A stretch of DNA of 64,000 nt. Origin: a virus (lineage: Duplodnaviria; Heunggongvirae; Uroviricota; Caudoviricetes). The DNA lies in the IMG/VR virus record IMGVR_UViG_2718218136_000001; one strand, given 5' to 3'. The notes below the pieces were generated by a model. The model worked only from the letters and a program-made list of their open reading frames with translations, was not told the DNA's origin and did no database searches. Below are positions 2,500-50,040 of the stretch, piece by piece; position 1 is the first letter of the stretch, and each line of letters opens with the position of its first letter. A program made the position numbers and the translations under genes.

Positions 2500-2721
2500 A
2501 TGGTTAATGCCAATCCTTGCGCACGCCCAGAATTCATCTGGCGTTTCTATTCCTGTAAAAAACACCACTATCACTTCGTTATCGCAGCAACTGAAGACGA
2601 AGCACGCTCTCAATTGCCTGATGGCCCCTGCATTTTTACTGCCCGTTTTTCAACTAACTCGCGCAATTCACTTAGTTACTGGAGCCTCCCCTTCTCTGCC
2701 GACGTTCAGGGGGGTTTATGA
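2500..2721 (+). CDS. icd: Icd-like cell-division interference protein
   Basis: 73-aa ORF whose stop overlaps the ant start (ATGA); position between the c4-like region and ant matches P1 immI. Confidence 0.75.
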   Translation: MVNANPCARPEFIWRFYSCKKHHYHFVIAATEDEARSQLPDGPCIFTARFSTNSRNSLSYWSLPFSADVQGGL

Positions 2722-3752
2722 AAACACCTCTCGTCACCCGTAATGAAATAGCCGAAGCGATCGCCCTGCATACTGCCTGTATGCCGACACGGGAGATCCC
2801 CGGCGCAATTGCTAACTATTTCATGATAACCAGACGTTTTTATACCCGAACAGATAAGGCTGTGATCAACAGGCTACTGATAGCCGAGATCAGGGATTAT
2901 TTGATTGAACAAGGACGTCTACGTTACGCAACAGTGGCAGCAGAAATGAGAAAGGAGGCACATAGAATGACCGGTAATAATTTAAATGTTGAAAAACCAG
3001 CACCTGTTGCTTCAGCTACGCCAGCACCAGCCCTGAATGTCATCCCCAACACCGGAGACACAATCGACAGCCAAACATTGTTGAAGATGGTCAATGAGGC
3101 ACGGAAATTATGTAGCGAAAAACCAGTTCGCAACAATGATTTCATTGCCAGAGTTAAGGATGAGCTTGAAGGAGAAACCTACGAAATTTTCGTAGGTCAA
3201 AAAAACGGCGCAGTAATAGATATTATAACCATGACCTACAAACAAGCCCTGCGAGTTGCCGCGCGCGAGTCAAAAGCGGTCCGCCGTTCGCTGATCGACA
3301 AACTGGAAGAATTGCAGCAGGCAAACTCCCCTACCCCATCGATCCCCCAAACATTACCAGAAGCTCTACGCCTGGCTGCCGAGTTGGCAGAACAGAAAAT
3401 GCAGTTGGAACAACAGCTGGTGGCCGCAGCCCCTAAAGTCGATTTTGCCGACCGGGTATCAGCGGCTAATGGAATCCTGATCGGGGACTTTGCAAAGGTC
3501 GTTGGACTTAAGCAAAACGCCCTTTTCTCATGGTTGCGCCAGAACGGCATTCTCATGGCTTTTGGTGCGCGCAAAAACGTACCGCGCCAGCAGTACATTA
3601 ACGCCGGGTATTTCACGGTGAAAGAAGTGGTGCTGGATGATGAAAATGGCTACCAGATACGGCTGACGCCCCAATTAACGGGTAAAGGCCAGCAGTGGTT
3701 AACTAGCAAGCTACTTGATGCTGGTTTGTTAAAACCAGTAGCAATAGGTTAA
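2718..3752 (+). CDS. ant: antirepressor Ant (Ant1/Ant2 in-frame pair expected)
   Basis: 344 aa; C-terminal region shares the KilA-C/antirepressor block (PQTLPEALRLAAELAEQK...GKGQQWL) with the KilA ORF and the second ant-like ORF in this window. Confidence 0.75.
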   Translation: MKTPLVTRNEIAEAIALHTACMPTREIPGAIANYFMITRRFYTRTDKAVINRLLIAEIRDYLIEQGRLRYATVAAEMRKEAHRMTGNNLNVEKPAPVASATPAPALNVIPNTGDTIDSQTLLKMVNEARKLCSEKPVRNNDFIARVKDELEGETYEIFVGQKNGAVIDIITMTYKQALRVAARESKAVRRSLIDKLEELQQANSPTPSIPQTLPEALRLAAELAEQKMQLEQQLVAAAPKVDFADRVSAANGILIGDFAKVVGLKQNALFSWLRQNGILMAFGARKNVPRQQYINAGYFTVKEVVLDDENGYQIRLTPQLTGKGQQWLTSKLLDAGLLKPVAIG

Positions 3753-3829
3753 CAAAAGAAAAAACCTGCCAGCTAACTGGCAGGTTTCTGAGCAGATCGA
3801 CCAACCCGATCTGGATCGAGTTAGAAAAA

Positions 3830-3846
3830 TTTGCTCTAATAAATTT
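3830..3846 (+). promoter_or_regulatory. C1 operator upstream of kilA-repL
   Basis: tttgctctaataaattt, one mismatch to the C1 operator consensus, about 70 bp before the kilA start. Confidence 0.6.
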
Positions 3847-3915
3847 CGTTTTCTAAGTGCAAAGAATCACCATTTCGAGCTGGTGATTGAAGGTTGATGC
3901 AAATTTGGAGAAAAA

Positions 3916-4716
3916 ATGCAACAAACATTCAATGCGGATATGAATATATCAAACCTTCATCAAAATGTCGATCCTTCAACCACCCTGCCTGTTATTTGTG
4001 GTGTTGAAATTACGACCGACCGCGCTGGCCGTTATAACCTTAATGCTCTACACAGAGCGAGCGGACTCGGTGCCCATAAAGCGCCAGCTCAATGGCTAAG
4101 AACGCTGTCAGCCAAACAGCTCATCGAAGAGCTTGAAAAAGAAACTATGCAGAATTGCATAGTTTCGTTCGAAGGCCGTGGCGGCGGCACTTTTGCCCAT
4201 GAATTGCTCGCAGTGGAGTACGCTGGTTGGATTTCTCCCGCGTTTCGGCTGAAGGTAAACCAGACATTTATCGACTATCGAGCTGGAAGATTACAACCTG
4301 CTATTCCGAAGAGCCTCCCAGAAGCTCTCCGTTTGGCTGCTGACCTGGCAGAGCAAAAGCAACGGCTGGAGCAAAAAATGCTGATGGATGCACCTAAAGT
4401 CGAATTCGCCGAACGCGTTGCTACCGCCAGCGGGGTTCTAATCGGCAACTATGCCAAAGTGCTCGGCCTGGGCCAAAACTATCTCTTCACCTGGTTGCGT
4501 GATAACGGAATTCTGATCGCAACCGGTGAACGCAGAAACGTCCCCAAACAAGAATACATATCCCGTGGGTATTTCACCCTTAAAGAAACCGTGATCGATA
4601 CAAGCAATGGAAGCAGGATTTCTTTCACGACTCGTATAACCGGCAAAGGTCAGCAGTGGCTGATGAAGCGATTGCTTGATGCTGGTGTGCTGGTACCTGT
4701 CGCGGCAACGCGCTAA
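3916..4716 (+). CDS. kilA: KilA (KilA-N plus KilA-C domains)
   Basis: 266 aa, the length recalled for P1 KilA; antirepressor-like C-terminal block; immediately upstream of repL. Confidence 0.8.
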   Translation: MQQTFNADMNISNLHQNVDPSTTLPVICGVEITTDRAGRYNLNALHRASGLGAHKAPAQWLRTLSAKQLIEELEKETMQNCIVSFEGRGGGTFAHELLAVEYAGWISPAFRLKVNQTFIDYRAGRLQPAIPKSLPEALRLAADLAEQKQRLEQKMLMDAPKVEFAERVATASGVLIGNYAKVLGLGQNYLFTWLRDNGILIATGERRNVPKQEYISRGYFTLKETVIDTSNGSRISFTTRITGKGQQWLMKRLLDAGVLVPVAATR

Positions 4717-4745: not shown

Positions 4746-5591
4746 ATGCTGGCTAAAGTCACTTTCCTGAGCTGTATAACGATGAGCGATTTTACTTTTT
4801 CTGGCTATGAATTGGCCTGCTTTGTAACACACTCCGGTCTATCCCGTAGCGCCGGGCATATCCTGTCGCAATGTGCAAATCTCGCGGCAACAACCAGTGA
4901 ATACTTCATTCACAAGCCTCACCGCCTGATCGCGGCAGAAACTGGTTATAGCCAATCAACCGTCGTTCGTGCATTCCGTGAAGCTGTAAACAAAGGAATT
5001 CTGTCTGTAGAGATTGTTATCGGCGATCACCGTGAACGTCGCGCTAACCTGTACCGGTTTACACCATCCTTTTTGGCCTTCGCACAACAAGCCAAAAATG
5101 CGCTGATTGAAAGCAAATTAAAGATCTCTTCAGCGGCAACCAAGGTTAAAGCTGTTCTCGCTAAGACATTGGCTTTATTTAATTTTTTATCCACACCCCC
5201 ATGTCAAAATGATACCCCCTCCCCCTGTCAGGATGACGTGGCAATAAAGAATAAGAAGTCACAAGTTAAAAAAACAAAAAGATCAGTTTCCGGCGGTGCC
5301 GGAACGACCAGACTCAAAAAATTGACTTCATGGATCGCTGAGGCAAAAGCAAAGGCTGACAATCTGCGGTTATCCAAAAAACGCGCTCAAAAACATGAGT
5401 TCAAGCAGAAAGTAGAGGCGGCAGCGCGGAAATATGCTTACCTGAAGGACAAGCGTTCTCCTGATATTGGCGGGATATCAAACTTCGATAATCTGCCGCA
5501 TTGCATGACGGTAAACGAAGCTCTTAATGCGGTTTTAGCCAAAAATAAAGATAACGAACAATGGGGTATACCGGCAGGATTCAGAGGGTGA
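4746..5591 (+). CDS. repL: lytic replication initiator RepL (oriL expected inside the gene)
   Basis: 281 aa, the length recalled for P1 RepL; follows kilA under the same C1 operator. Confidence 0.75.
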   Translation: MLAKVTFLSCITMSDFTFSGYELACFVTHSGLSRSAGHILSQCANLAATTSEYFIHKPHRLIAAETGYSQSTVVRAFREAVNKGILSVEIVIGDHRERRANLYRFTPSFLAFAQQAKNALIESKLKISSAATKVKAVLAKTLALFNFLSTPPCQNDTPSPCQDDVAIKNKKSQVKKTKRSVSGGAGTTRLKKLTSWIAEAKAKADNLRLSKKRAQKHEFKQKVEAAARKYAYLKDKRSPDIGGISNFDNLPHCMTVNEALNAVLAKNKDNEQWGIPAGFRG

Positions 5592-5887
5592 TAGATTGCT
5601 CTAATCTGGAGTCACCTGGCGTTTTCAGTTTGAGGTCGGAGATGCAATCTGATTTTTTACAGTTAGCGATCGCTTTTGCAGGATATGTTTGTATTGGCTT
5701 CTGTGTATACATGATCAGCCGAAAAATGCTTGTCGATATCGACCGCAAAGAACAAGCAGAGGAGATCTTAGTATGGATTTTCTTTGGCGCGGTCTGGCCA
5801 TTAGGGATCATGTTTGCTGCAACATTTCTTCTGATGTGGATATTCACCCTTCCAGGTGATTTCTATAGAAAAAAAGCCAGACATTGA
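5561..5887 (+). CDS. small hypothetical membrane protein
   Basis: Two hydrophobic helices (IAFAGYVCIGFCVYMI, ILVWIFFGAVWPLGIMFAATFLLMWIF); start likely an internal Met. Confidence 0.35.
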   Translation: MGYTGRIQRVIDCSNLESPGVFSLRSEMQSDFLQLAIAFAGYVCIGFCVYMISRKMLVDIDRKEQAEEILVWIFFGAVWPLGIMFAATFLLMWIFTLPGDFYRKKARH

Positions 5888-6010
5888 TACAATCGTTGCG
5901 GGTGCTTGAGGCTATCTGCTTCAGGCATTACCCGAAAAGCAGATAGAAGAAAGCCCCAGATAACATTACGCGTCCTGCAAGACGCTTAACATTAATCTGA
6001 GGCCATATCT

Positions 6011-6217
6011 ATGCTTAGCATACGTAGATTAGCCTCTTACCGACCAAAAGGTCAAGGAGAAGCAGGCTATGAAGCAGCAAAAAGCGATGTTAATCGCTCT
6101 GATCGTCATCTGTTTAACCGTCATTGTGACGGCACTGGTAACGAGGAAAGACCTCTGCGAGGTACGAATCCGAACCGGCCAGACGGAGGTCACTGTCTTC
6201 ACAGCCTACGAATCTGA
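6011..6217 (+). CDS. mok-like overlapping reading frame of the hok-like locus
   Basis: 68-aa ORF starting upstream of and overlapping the hok-like ORF in another frame, as in hok/mok/sok loci. Confidence 0.3.
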   Translation: MLSIRRLASYRPKGQGEAGYEAAKSDVNRSDRHLFNRHCDGTGNEERPLRGTNPNRPDGGHCLHSLRI

Positions 6218-6224
6218 AAGGTAA
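6069..6224 (+). CDS. hok: Hok/Gef-family type I toxin
   Basis: 51 aa MKQQKAMLIALIVICLTVIVTALVTRKDLCEVRIRTGQTEVTVFTAYESER; hydrophobic N-terminus followed by the conserved LTRK-LCE-R-R-G--EV--F-AYES pattern. Confidence 0.7.
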   Translation: MKQQKAMLIALIVICLTVIVTALVTRKDLCEVRIRTGQTEVTVFTAYESER

Positions 6225-6301
6225 GAGACCTGGCGGGGAGAGATCCCTGCCACTCTTCGTGTGTCAGGTATCCTCAATGCACCCTTTCCTCTCCAAATAA
6301 A

Positions 6302-6321
6302 AAAGCTCCCGAAGGAGCTTT
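6302..6321. terminator. bidirectional hairpin terminator between the hok-like gene and the minus-strand virion block
   Basis: aaagctcc cgaa ggagcttt perfect inverted repeat flanked by A/T runs on both sides. Confidence 0.5.
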
Positions 6322-6340
6322 AAAATACAAGGGATGACTC

Positions 6341-6850
6341 TTAAGCCCACTCAATCCAGTTGTAGACGATACGAAGTGACGGGCGCACAGCGGCAGTCAC
6401 ATCTTCGGTACTAAAGTCGATTGCATCACTGTAGATTTTGCAGTCCAACATTTCAATTGTTGTAGCAGCTTTTGTCACAGCGTTAACCCCGGAAGATTTG
6501 GATTCAGGGGTCGCAGCCATCGTGATATCAACATAGTCCTTCGCCGCAATGCGATCTTTAATGAACTGAAGAATATCGCCTTCGATAGTCTCCACGCACT
6601 GGACCTGGATTTCCCCAGAGTTTCGAATTGGACCGTGCTGGTTGAACTTCACACCATTCGGACCATAGTCCTCCACATCCTCGCGGGTCATTTCAGGAAT
6701 TTGCGACGTGCGAACCAGTACGCTGATATCTTCATGGCCTGCAAAAGTGAGCTGGAATTCAGAAGATACCAGTCGTTCGCCTTTGGCCGCGTTGGCAGTA
6801 TAGCGGCCCTTAATAAATTTACGGTTTCCCTTAGTGTTATTGTGCCCCAT
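6341..6850 (-). CDS. putative virion structural protein (tail-tube-sized)
   Basis: 169-aa ORF in a co-directional late-gene block; no diagnostic motif. Confidence 0.4.
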   Translation of the reverse strand: MGHNNTKGNRKFIKGRYTANAAKGERLVSSEFQLTFAGHEDISVLVRTSQIPEMTREDVEDYGPNGVKFNQHGPIRNSGEIQVQCVETIEGDILQFIKDRIAAKDYVDITMAATPESKSSGVNAVTKAATTIEMLDCKIYSDAIDFSTEDVTAAVRPSLRIVYNWIEWA

Positions 6851-6861
6851 ATAAAATCCTT

Positions 6862-7443
6862 TTACTGGAACGCCCGAACAATATCGGAGCTGTTATATAT
6901 CGAAGAACCGGTCAACTGGAGGTTGACGGTGTTTTTCAGGAAATGCCCATTGCTGTCCCTGGGCGCATCGAGATCGAAACTTATGTCCTGGATAGCGACA
7001 TCAATGATGTTGATCCGGCGACCAATGTTTAGCGTCACACGCTCCGGGATTCGACCACCAATACTGGCATCTTTAAGTTCCGGGCTAATCATCGCTGACA
7101 ATGCGGCGATAGCTCCTGAAACCTCCGTGAATGGGTCAAACAAAGCGATGAAAGTTACTGGCAGCGTGAAAGTCGGCGGTGTTCCCCCCTCCCAAACCAT
7201 TAAGCTGTTCCAACGGGCCACCGACGTTGTTTCAGTACCAACCTGCGCAAAACCACTGAAAGCACCAGCAACAGACCCCATGGACATACCGGTAAACGGC
7301 GCTTCCCAATTCTGGGCCATGTTCATTGCTGCCCCCTGGCTGATATATCCGGTAACCTGGTACTGAGAGTTCGTTAAAGTAACTTTCAGAAATGGCGATA
7401 CACCGTCAGCCTGGCTGTAAACCCCATAAGGAATAGGTGCCAT
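6862..7443 (-). CDS. putative virion structural protein
   Basis: 193-aa ORF tightly packed in the same block. Confidence 0.4.
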   Translation of the reverse strand: MAPIPYGVYSQADGVSPFLKVTLTNSQYQVTGYISQGAAMNMAQNWEAPFTGMSMGSVAGAFSGFAQVGTETTSVARWNSLMVWEGGTPPTFTLPVTFIALFDPFTEVSGAIAALSAMISPELKDASIGGRIPERVTLNIGRRINIIDVAIQDISFDLDAPRDSNGHFLKNTVNLQLTGSSIYNSSDIVRAFQ

Positions 7444-44522: not shown

Positions 44523-44744
44523 ATGCAATCCATTAACTTCCGTACCGCGCGCGGCAACCTTTCTGAAGTGCTCAACAATGTTGAAGCCGGGGAAGAGGTT
44601 GAAATCACCCGCAGAGGCCGTGAGCCAGCAGTAATTGTCAGCAAGGCTACTTTCGAAGCCTACAAAAAAGCGGCGCTGGATGCTGAATTTGCATCCCTGT
44701 TTGACACCCTGGACTCCACCAACAAGGAACTGGTTAACCGATAA
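44523..44744 (+). CDS. phd: antitoxin Phd
   Basis: 73 aa [56 protein letters not shown]...; stop overlaps the doc start. Confidence 0.9.
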
Positions 44745-45124
44745 TGAGGCATATATCACCGGAAGAACTTATTGCGCTTCATGATGCGAATATAAGCCGC
44801 TACGGCGGCCTGCCGGGAATGTCAGATCCGGGTAGGGCAGAGGCCATTATCGGGAGAGTTCAGGCCAGAGTTGCCTACGAAGAGATCACCGACCTTTTCG
44901 AAGTCTCCGCCACCTACCTGGTGGCTACAGCGAGAGGGCATATATTCAATGATGCCAATAAGCGTACCGCGCTAAACAGCGCGCTGCTATTTCTACGCCG
45001 TAACGGGGTGCAGGTATTTGATTCACCTGAACTGGTAGACCTTACCGTAGGGGCTGCGACCGGAGAGATATCTGTATCTTCTGTCGCCGACACGTTACGT
45101 AGATTGTATGGTTCTGCGGAGTAG
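44744..45124 (+). CDS. doc: toxin Doc (Fic-fold kinase)
   Basis: 126 aa; Fic-like motif [11 protein letters not shown]; directly downstream of phd. Confidence 0.9.
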
Positions 45125-49702: not shown

Positions 49703-49879
49703 GTGTTTTTTGACTGCCGATGTTACATTGAACCTGACCTCTTGCGCCTTGAGGCATTTTCGGTTTATGCTTATCAGGCACCTCATTAAAACGGGTGCCG
49801 GGATTGAGACCCCGGATAATGTCAAAGGCGACACAGACGCCGAAAGCGTCTTTTTTTGTGTCATGCCATCGCACAGCCA

Positions 49880-50040
49880 TACGTAGCGTTTAGCTCCGAA
49901 ATCAATGGTAGTGCTGGCTGGGCTGCCGAAAGGCAGGCCGGTTCCCTTTGACGCCGGTAGTCTCAACCCAGTCAGTGCTACCGCCATTGAGATTGAGACC
50001 TCACGCGGTAGCTCCTTAACTTAGTCAAAGGAGGCTGCCA
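49880..50040 (+). ncRNA. candidate second c4-like antisense RNA region (very approximate)
   Basis: Upstream leader of the icd paralog; ccctttgac (49944-49952) is complementary in 8 of 9 positions to gtcaaagga (50024-50032) at the RBS. Confidence 0.25.

Follow-up and report, generated by a model that had tools for sequence, protein, structure and literature searches.

A predicted hok/mok/sok locus between repL and bplB of a P1-like phage-plasmid

What occupies the interval between repL and bplB in this P1-like phage-plasmid, and does it carry the parts of a toxin-antitoxin system of type I? The window, by which we mean the whole 64,000-nt stretch of DNA analysed, is a P1-like phage-plasmid, and an earlier note on it had placed a hok/mok-type killing module in this interval. 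Judged by homology, motif arrangement and RNA folding, positions 5866-6284 contain every part of a hok/mok/sok toxin-antitoxin locus (type I) and fall within the prophage hokW/hokD subfamily.

Results

Place of the cassette relative to P1

The genes and elements that frame the cassette, together with the second addiction module discussed below, are as follows.

2718-3752: ant-like ORF, upstream of the hok cassette
3916-4716: kilA, upstream of the hok cassette
4746-5591: repL, upstream of the hok cassette
5642-5887: membrane ORF of 81 aa, PHROG 3772, which has no assigned function
6302-6321, no strand given: GC hairpin AAAGCTCC-cgaa-GGAGCTTT, P1 backbone, possible bidirectional terminator
6341-6850, minus strand: bplB, downstream of the hok cassette
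6862-7443, minus strand: pmgG, downstream of the hok cassette
44523-45121: phd/doc, type II addiction module

Beyond pmgG the minus strand continues with gene 21 and the sheath gene 22, and Rfam matches in other parts of the window include C4 antisense RNA and three tRNAs. In reference P1 the genes rlfA, rlfB and pmgF fill about 1.8 kb between repL and bplB, a gene order absent from the window. Homology to P1 ends at about 5606, within the C1 operator Orlf, and restarts at about 6297, just before the hairpin at 6302-6321. The block in between (5607-6296) contains the 81-aa membrane ORF, for which PHROG 3772 was the sole match and searches of Pfam and NCBIfam returned none, followed by the hok cassette, which lies directly downstream of the C1-repressed kilA-repL lytic operon and is co-oriented with it. 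Reference P1 and P7 both lack the hok cassette. The alignments thus indicate that in this P1-like lineage the cassette and the membrane ORF replace rlfA-rlfB-pmgF.

The earlier note had assigned a hairpin terminator to hok. A hairpin is indeed present at 6302-6321, and in P1 the same hairpin lies between bplB and pmgF. Because P1 homology resumes at about 6297, ahead of the hairpin, and the window is identical to P1 from there on, this structure belongs to the P1 backbone and is not the hok terminator. A terminator scan called it on the minus strand only, since its plus-strand U-tract consists of just UUU. The hok cassette proper ends at the fbi box, at position 6284.

The hok toxin and the overlapping mok frame

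The coding part of the cassette comprises two overlapping frames, each with its own Shine-Dalgarno (SD) sequence.

5999-6002, plus strand: mok Shine-Dalgarno sequence GAGG, with the motif and spacing of the R1 mok SD and conserved in alignments
6011-6217, plus strand: mok-like leader ORF of 68 codons, in the +1 frame relative to hok
6054-6059, plus strand: hok Shine-Dalgarno sequence AAGGAG, overlapping the Sok -35 element of the opposite strand
6069-6224, plus strand: hok toxin gene, 51 aa (MKQQKAMLIALIVICLTVIVTALVTRKDLCEVRIRTGQTEVTVFTAYESER), Hok/Gef family, HokD/HokW-like

The Hok/Gef assignment proposed from the peptide sequence was borne out by profile searches, in which the 51-aa product matched Pfam PF01848 HOK_GEF (E=2.4e-22, bit score 78.7, cutoff 22) and PHROG 251 'MokW-like host killing' (E=4.9e-32). 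The NCBIfam Hok subfamily model scored below threshold (49.5 against a cutoff of 73). Three to four of the 51 residues differ between the window Hok and the HokD and HokW copies with which it was compared. The hok SD falls within an invariant CAAGGAGAAG block common to the R1-type and 933W loci, and it is paired in the fold of the full-length mRNA.

A longer, upstream-starting frame overlapping hok in the manner of mok had also been expected, and the 68-codon ORF answers that description: it starts 58 nt 5′ of the hok AUG. With this ORF and its SD in place, translation of mok is predicted to reach the hok start and to be coupled to that of hok. The reading frame of mok differs between loci. 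Among ten prophage and phage copies it was in frame with hok in eight, and a ninth, O157H16, was in frame but truncated by a stop. An in-frame mok yields a 70-aa extended product in hokW-type loci, which is not so in the window (68 aa, +1). Elsewhere mok is in frame in one IncFII R1-type copy, in the +1 frame in R1 and reduced to a 19-codon mini-ORF in one strain. This variability is consistent with the published view that only translation as far as the hok start matters (PMC9841398). An off-frame mok is variation inside the hokW/hokD subfamily and gives no ground for excluding the window locus from it.

Promoter, leader and fold of the hok/mok mRNA

Six elements were located on the hok/mok transcript.

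5866-5893, plus strand: predicted hok/mok mRNA promoter (-35 TAGAAA at 5866-5871, 16-nt spacer, extended -10 TGaTACAAT at 5885-5893)
5900-5911, plus strand: putative mRNA +1 and tac element (GGGUGCUUGAGG), at the start of the RF01794 match
5952-5957, plus strand: ucb or anti-SD box AGCCCC, by which the mok SD is masked when the mRNA is closed (minimum free energy, MFE, fold)
6032-6036, plus strand: dcb box GCCUC, potential partner of the mok SD region in the open form
6231-6252, plus strand: stem-loop in the 3′ UTR, expected to protect the 3′ end once the mRNA is processed (MFE folds)
6272-6284, plus strand: fbi (fold-back inhibition) box CCUCAAUGCACCC, which pairs with tac and marks the end of the shared cassette

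The candidate hok/mok promoter reached 9/12 with the TG extension in a promoter scan and ends 6 nt before G5900. Its -10 element aligns with TAGAAT of 933W hokW, at equal distance from a conserved GGGTGCTTGAGG, and these features point to promoter function for 5866-5893. Homology to prophage and R1-type hok loci begins at G5900, and the tac element is invariant in the ten homologues.

The leader (5900-6074) matched the Rfam family RF01794, named 'sok', over the full length of the model (1-157) with 114.9 bits against a gathering threshold of 59 (E=2e-25). This match is a plus-strand one, since the consensus of the model extends as far as the SD and AUG of hok; RF01794 describes the hok leader containing the Sok target and not the antisense transcript itself. 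The minus strand, where a sok-like Rfam hit had been anticipated, gave none.

Folding of 5900-6325 gave an MFE of -166.5 kcal/mol (z=-9.7 against shuffled sequences, 0/100 of which reached it). Like the profile and Rfam matches, this stability lies well outside what chance would give. In this fold tac (5900-5911) and fbi (6272-6284) form 12 bp with one bulge, which agrees with the suggestion of fold-back elements in the mRNA. Positions 5953-5955 and 5957 within ucb pair with 5999 and 6001-6003, burying the mok SD. The partner of the mok AUG is 6269-6271, and a long helix that takes in the 3′ region of the ORF buries the SD and AUG of hok. On this model tac/fbi closure would hide both SDs in the full-length mRNA. 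The fold is conserved among ten distinct homologues, with 93% of alignment cells paired and nine pairs changed on both sides, as compared with 3.1 in shuffles and 0-1 with slid partners. Two of the pairs with compensatory changes among homologues lie in the 3′ stem-loop at 6231-6252 (helix 16); the role of the last hairpin in processed hok mRNA and the definition of the ucb element have been described (PMC9841398). The fbi box was paired in 99% of cells across the homologues and showed no sequence variation. As tac/fbi never varies within this close subfamily, covariation is uninformative there. The stem of the Sok target hairpin was kept in 87% of cells, with one-sided changes only and no double changes.

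When the mRNA was truncated at its 3′ end (ends 6250-6260), the MFE structure contained a metastable tac hairpin (tac with 5919-5933) in place of tac/ucb pairing. An R1-type control, an RNA studied by experiment, was truncated in the same way and likewise gave an MFE structure without the tac/ucb open form. Pairing of dcb, which lies inside an invariant TTAGCCTCTTAC block, appeared once tac/ucb was enforced, and the enforced tac/ucb and SD/dcb structure lay 4.7 kcal/mol above the MFE for the window as against 3.2 kcal/mol for the R1-type control.

A predicted Sok antisense gene

The antisense RNA was expected on the minus strand at about 5930-6060, and both elements of its predicted gene were located there.

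6055-6026, minus strand: predicted Sok promoter (-35 TTGACC at 6055-6050, 18-nt spacer, -10 TAATCT at 6031-6026)
about 6019-5949, minus strand: predicted Sok RNA of about 71 nt, position transferred by alignment from the annotated 71-nt sokW of 933W

The predicted RNA has a 15-nt single-stranded 5′ tail (6019-6005) over the mok AUG, and next to it a 53-nt hairpin (6004-5952), the presumed terminator, which runs into U-rich sequence; the fold of the RNA is stable (-29.1 kcal/mol, z=-4.8). A generic sigma-70 scan returned no minus-strand promoter in 6020-6060; the Sok site matches the consensus at 8/12 positions, which is below the threshold of that scan. Homology to sokW and R1 served to position the promoter, and the window sequence is homologous to the sokW promoter TTGCCT...TAACCT. 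In the study of Takada et al. the 'pro-less' sokW mutant (primers YO-421/422) alters the -10 element TAACCT, the position equivalent to TAATCT in the window, and this promoter-less mutant lost antitoxin activity. The 71-nt sokW RNA itself was detected by northern blot in Sp5. We therefore predict a Sok-like antisense gene with its own promoter on the minus strand of the window.

The most variable stretch of this otherwise 93%-identical family lies just after the mok AUG and coincides with the loop of the target hairpin and the 5′ tail of Sok. Such a variable loop would fit a specificity determinant that insulates co-resident loci, and chromosomal Sok RNAs have been reported not to cross-protect for R1 hok (PMC9841398).

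Distribution and earlier descriptions

At a coverage of at least 80%, the 749-bp repL-bplB spacer of the window was found in about 260 PLSDB plasmids and in 233 of 5,426 complete E. coli genomes. The remark of the earlier note that such a module is not known at this position in P1 holds for reference P1, which has rlfA-rlfB-pmgF at this site; in the P1 group as a whole the locus is not unusual. A junction-spanning query gave a rough estimate of two-thirds of P1-like PLSDB plasmids with the hok arrangement, so that by this rough estimate the arrangement of reference P1 is the minority one among sequenced P1-like plasmids. The window copy and NZ_CP080083.1 agree at every position (100% identity), and the sequence is at least 99% conserved in hundreds of plasmids. 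In the P1-like relatives NZ_CP080083.1, phi456, MH422554 and pSvP1/pTZ20_1P the whole spacer occupies the same site with 99-100% identity. At an identity of at least 99% it is found in the phages phi456, MH422554 (annotated 'MokW'), MH445380/1 and Ro157c2YLVW, and several GenBank 'P1' phage records contain it with the annotation hokD or MokW. About 4,000 of the 5,426 complete E. coli genomes, and many lambdoid phages as well, have loci of the hokW/hokD type.

The replacement of rlfA-rlfB-pmgF was reported in 2019 by Venturini et al., who gave the new content as '2-3 orfs including antibacterial toxin' (PMC6906374). Our search of the literature on hok in P1-like elements, IncY plasmids and phage-plasmids found this 2019 'antibacterial toxin' description and no paper dedicated to the locus. 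A hok cassette at this P1-like site is thus already known, real but ordinary.

IS186-type insertion between hok and fbi

In about 189 of some 415 cassette-bearing plasmids (approximately 45%) the match to the window breaks at 6237-6247. An IS186-type target, GGAGAGATCC, is located at 6237-6246 within the 3′ stem-loop (6231-6252). CP122701.1 carries a 1,348-bp insert at this target that encodes a DDE transposase and is flanked by a 10-bp duplication of GGAGAGATCC; the insert in pSvP1 was identified as IS186B by Venturini et al. (PMC6906374). The insertion falls close to the loop of the 3′ hairpin (GGGG-N6-CCC) and separates hok from fbi. In K-12 gef/hokC, fbi is likewise disrupted by IS186. The window copy is uninterrupted by an IS. 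With an IS between hok and fbi in about 45% of cassette plasmids, the intact module is evidently dispensable.

Discussion

A model for the window locus

With this set of elements the window locus is very probably an active hok/mok/sok module. Several points speak against this reading: the weak plus-strand U-tract of the hairpin downstream of the cassette, the Sok promoter with its 8/12 match below the scan threshold, the MFE fold of the truncated mRNA without tac/ucb (shared by the R1-type control), the reports of chromosomal hok loci that do not kill, the frequent IS between hok and fbi, and the presence of phd/doc. A model based on homology to R1 hok/sok and Sp5 hokW-sokW would run as follows. 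Transcription from the promoter at 5866-5893 would yield a stable mRNA of about 385-425 nt, in which the 5′ tac element pairs with the 3′ fbi box and the SDs and AUGs of both mok and hok are base-paired. With the start sites paired in this closed form, the full-length RNA would escape both translation and binding by Sok. Its 3′ end would then be trimmed slowly as far as the hairpin at 6231-6252, with loss of fbi, and the leader would refold (tac/ucb, SD/dcb) so as to expose the mok start region in a hairpin loop.

In cells that still have the element, Sok, a short-lived RNA of about 71 nt (minus strand 6019-5949), would bind the exposed loop through its 5′ tail. By blocking translation of mok, Sok would thereby also block the coupled translation of hok, and the Sok-mRNA duplex would be cut by RNase III. 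If Sok synthesis ceased, on plasmid loss, transcription shut-off or prophage induction, the stored mRNA would be translated and the membrane toxin Hok would kill the cell. Under this model hok/sok would be a second addiction module of the element besides phd/doc.

Biological role

The main role of the cassette is most likely to stabilise, together with phd/doc, a plasmid prophage of low copy number. R1 hok/sok, the classical post-segregational killer, also weakly excludes T4. Help with lysis at induction and phage exclusion are alternatives that do not exclude plasmid stabilisation.

The closest relative gives reason to consider lysis. On induction of Sp5 the sokW RNA vanishes and HokW is found in the inner membrane about 1 h before endolysin, deletion of hokW-sokW halves phage release, and the window locus is 88% identical to this system. 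By analogy, Sok would be lost on induction, perhaps because transcription reads through from the adjacent C1-repressed kilA-repL operon, and the membrane would be made permeable by Hok before holin and endolysin act; P1, moreover, already has phd/doc for addiction. Nevertheless the effect in Sp5 is a modest, twofold one, and a plasmid prophage, in contrast to Sp5, is exposed to loss by mis-segregation, which makes classical post-segregational killing directly applicable. A lysis aid and an addiction module can be one and the same locus. We consider it unlikely, while still worth serious thought, that aiding lysis or phage release rather than addiction is the main role here. A defence function against other phages would rest on shut-off of host transcription by an invader, which would deplete Sok and release Hok. 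Defence genes are common on prophages and phage-plasmids, and R1 hok/sok, when carried at high copy number, is reported to have lowered the plating of T4 by 42% and the size of its plaques by about 85%. The R1 effect is weak and needed high copy number, and a survey of Hok loci found no enrichment of hok beside defence systems; abortive infection as the selected function seems improbable.

The cassette could also be structurally intact and yet unable to kill, kept by hitch-hiking as a silent passenger. Chromosomal hokA, hokB and hokC are reported to give neither post-segregational killing nor a response to rifampicin, absence of such killing is also reported for chromosomal hok loci that have all elements, and many P1-like plasmids tolerate an IS that separates hok from fbi. 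Recurrent disruption of this kind, however, fits at least as well with selection against an active toxin or with a preference of IS186 for the GGGG-N6-CCC hairpin. Moreover, the regulatory elements and both ORFs are intact and at least 99% conserved in hundreds of plasmids, 42 of the 45 Hok peptides tested in a survey were toxic, HokD included, and hokW-sokW, the closest homologue to have been characterised, works from its own locus. We regard a silent cassette as very improbable.

Plasmid stabilisation remains our preferred reading of the locus. One further proposal, that hok/sok was recruited in P1-like phage-plasmids as an induction-coupled module and not as a simple addiction system, strikes us as improbable. 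On induction, read-through from kilA-repL might interfere with the convergent Sok promoter or produce 5′-extended hok transcripts unable to form tac/fbi, and in both cases the making of Hok would become coupled to the lytic switch. If this were true, the IS186-type elements found so often between hok and fbi would be the trace of a continuing conflict over Hok activity.

As a locus of one of the best-studied toxin-antitoxin families, with an experimentally characterised nearest relative and with annotated copies at this site in hundreds of P1-like plasmids, the cassette is of small value as a discovery. Its value lies in annotation: automatic annotation records the toxin ORF alone and omits mok, Sok and the RNA elements, and the element is one with two unrelated addiction modules, hok/sok and phd/doc.

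Comparison with known hok systems

P1 phd/doc shares the presumed purpose of the window hok/sok, the stabilisation of a plasmid prophage, but it is a pair of protein antitoxin and toxin related to hok/sok in neither sequence nor mechanism.

K-12 carries hokD (relF) in the Qin prophage, which matches window positions 6055-6284 at 91% and lacks everything 5′ of 6055, namely the leader, the mok start, the Sok gene and tac, whereas the window copy is complete. The possibility that the window ORF is a truncated relic of this kind was rejected, as full leader, mok, Sok and tac are all present. The window Hok differs from the common HokD sequence at three residues, and PGAP labels it 'hokD'.

R1 hok/mok/sok (parB) and its IncF relatives have the same architecture as the window locus, with closure by tac and fbi and the ucb, SD and dcb boxes. 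In R1 the mok AUG is at 116-118 and the hok AUG at 174-176, giving the same 58-nt offset (PMC9841398), the Sok promoter overlaps the hok SD region as it does in the window, and the energy cost of the open form is comparable. The R1-type tac/fbi pair, GGCGCUU/GAAGCGCC, differs in sequence from that of the window while complementarity is kept. Nucleotide similarity between the two is only patchy; a distant blastn search against plasmids did not reach R1-type hok loci, which were retrieved by tblastn with the R1 Hok peptide as query. The published identity of 44% between HokW and R1 Hok indicates the scale of protein divergence. Relative to R1, the first leader hairpin of the window is shorter and the Sok hairpin longer.

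Closest to the window locus are the hokW/hokD loci of lambdoid phages and prophages, which are 86-91% identical to the unit 5897-6284 (+1 to fbi). Prophage homology has exactly these limits, which fits a mobile functional unit. With hokW-mokW-sokW of the Stx2 phages 933W and Sp5 (VT2-Sakai) the window shares 88% nucleotide identity across the mRNA from +1 to fbi, and the boxes, the SDs, the Sok hairpin and the position of the Sok promoter are all conserved. HokW is likewise a 51-aa toxin and differs from the window Hok at four residues. The mok frame of the hokW type is in frame with hok, whereas in the window a 1-nt insertion (T at about 6052) shifts it to +1, as in R1. Further differences concern the hok promoter's -35 element and the terminator context downstream, and hokW-sokW resides in an integrated lambdoid phage in contrast to the plasmid prophage that carries the window locus. 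About half of the positions of the 9-nt target loop and the Sok 5′ tail differ between the two loci, and cross-regulation between the window system and hokW-sokW is therefore unlikely. In Sp5, hokW-sokW is an experimentally proven type I toxin-antitoxin system in which the toxin arrests growth and sokW neutralises it in a partly RNase III- and Hfq-dependent manner.

Variation in the Sok target loop and the mok frame

The 9-nt loop that follows the mok AUG (window 6014-6022) is the target for the 5' tail of Sok, the antisense RNA of the hok/mok/sok type I toxin-antitoxin cassette. When the hok-locus homologues were aligned (alignment A3) this loop was found to be hypervariable, while the loci are elsewhere 93% identical and the stem flanking the loop is retained. 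This pattern suggests that diversification of the loop would prevent cross-talk among co-resident hok/sok loci. The mok reading frame is not conserved when the window copy (6011-6217) is compared with homologues L001 and L004-L013. In most prophage copies, and in one IncFII R1-type copy, mok is in frame with hok and would give a fusion-like product of 70-71 amino acids; the window copy has mok in the +1 frame relative to hok, and in strain MY504 mok comprises 19 codons and stops at the AUG of hok.

Rfam's 'sok antitoxin' family, RF01794, hits the hok leader in the sense direction, up to the hok AUG (5900-6074, plus strand). The strand called by this model should therefore not be used to deduce which way the antisense RNA runs. 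Rfam also returned two matches to C4 antisense RNA in the 64-kb window, the second of which suggests a further C4-type immunity or antirepressor control module at ~49.9 kb. Three tRNA genes, expected in P1-like phages, were matched as well.

Other RNA features matched by Rfam
2246-2298 and 2367-2452, C4 antisense RNA and its a1/b1 targets, in the immI region expected near 2.3 kb
49778-49856 and 49901-49988, second C4 antisense RNA (~49.9 kb), with an isrK-like RNA ahead of C4
23093-23165, 23171-23243 and 24687-24759, tRNA genes

The segment replacing rlfA-rlfB-pmgF

The left junction with P1 (window 5595-5611) lies inside the C1 operator Orlf/Op55, of which the first 11 of 17 bp are kept (ATTGCTCTAAT), followed by CTGGAG versus TATAAC in P1. 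If C1 still binds there, it might control the 81-aa ORF or read-through into hok. Besides the hok cassette, the remainder of the segment substituting rlfA-rlfB-pmgF is taken up by an ORF, which matches PHROG 3772 (function unknown; E=3e-54) and gave no match in Pfam and NCBIfam profile searches. In its 108-aa form the ORF overlaps the last part of repL.

5642-5887, plus strand, predicted membrane protein of 81 amino acids (108 from an alternative start at 5561)

The phd and doc genes of P1 are also present, so that the element has type II and type I addiction modules together.

44523-44741, phd, 100% identical to P1 phd
44744-45121, doc, 98% identical to P1 doc

IS186-type insertion downstream of hok

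Approximately 189 of ~415 cassette-bearing plasmids in the plasmid database PLSDB (both numbers being estimated from place counts and from a sample taken at even spacing) carry a 1.35-kb IS186-type element that separates the stop codon of hok from the fbi box. The insertion site corresponds to the hairpin in the hok 3' UTR; the window cassette is intact.

6237-6246, insertion site, 10-bp duplication GGAGAGATCC
L014 (example locus with the insert) 2598-3946, IS186-type element encoding a DDE transposase

In K-12 gef/hokC, IS186 is likewise inserted downstream of the toxin gene, in parallel to the cassettes of P1-like plasmids.
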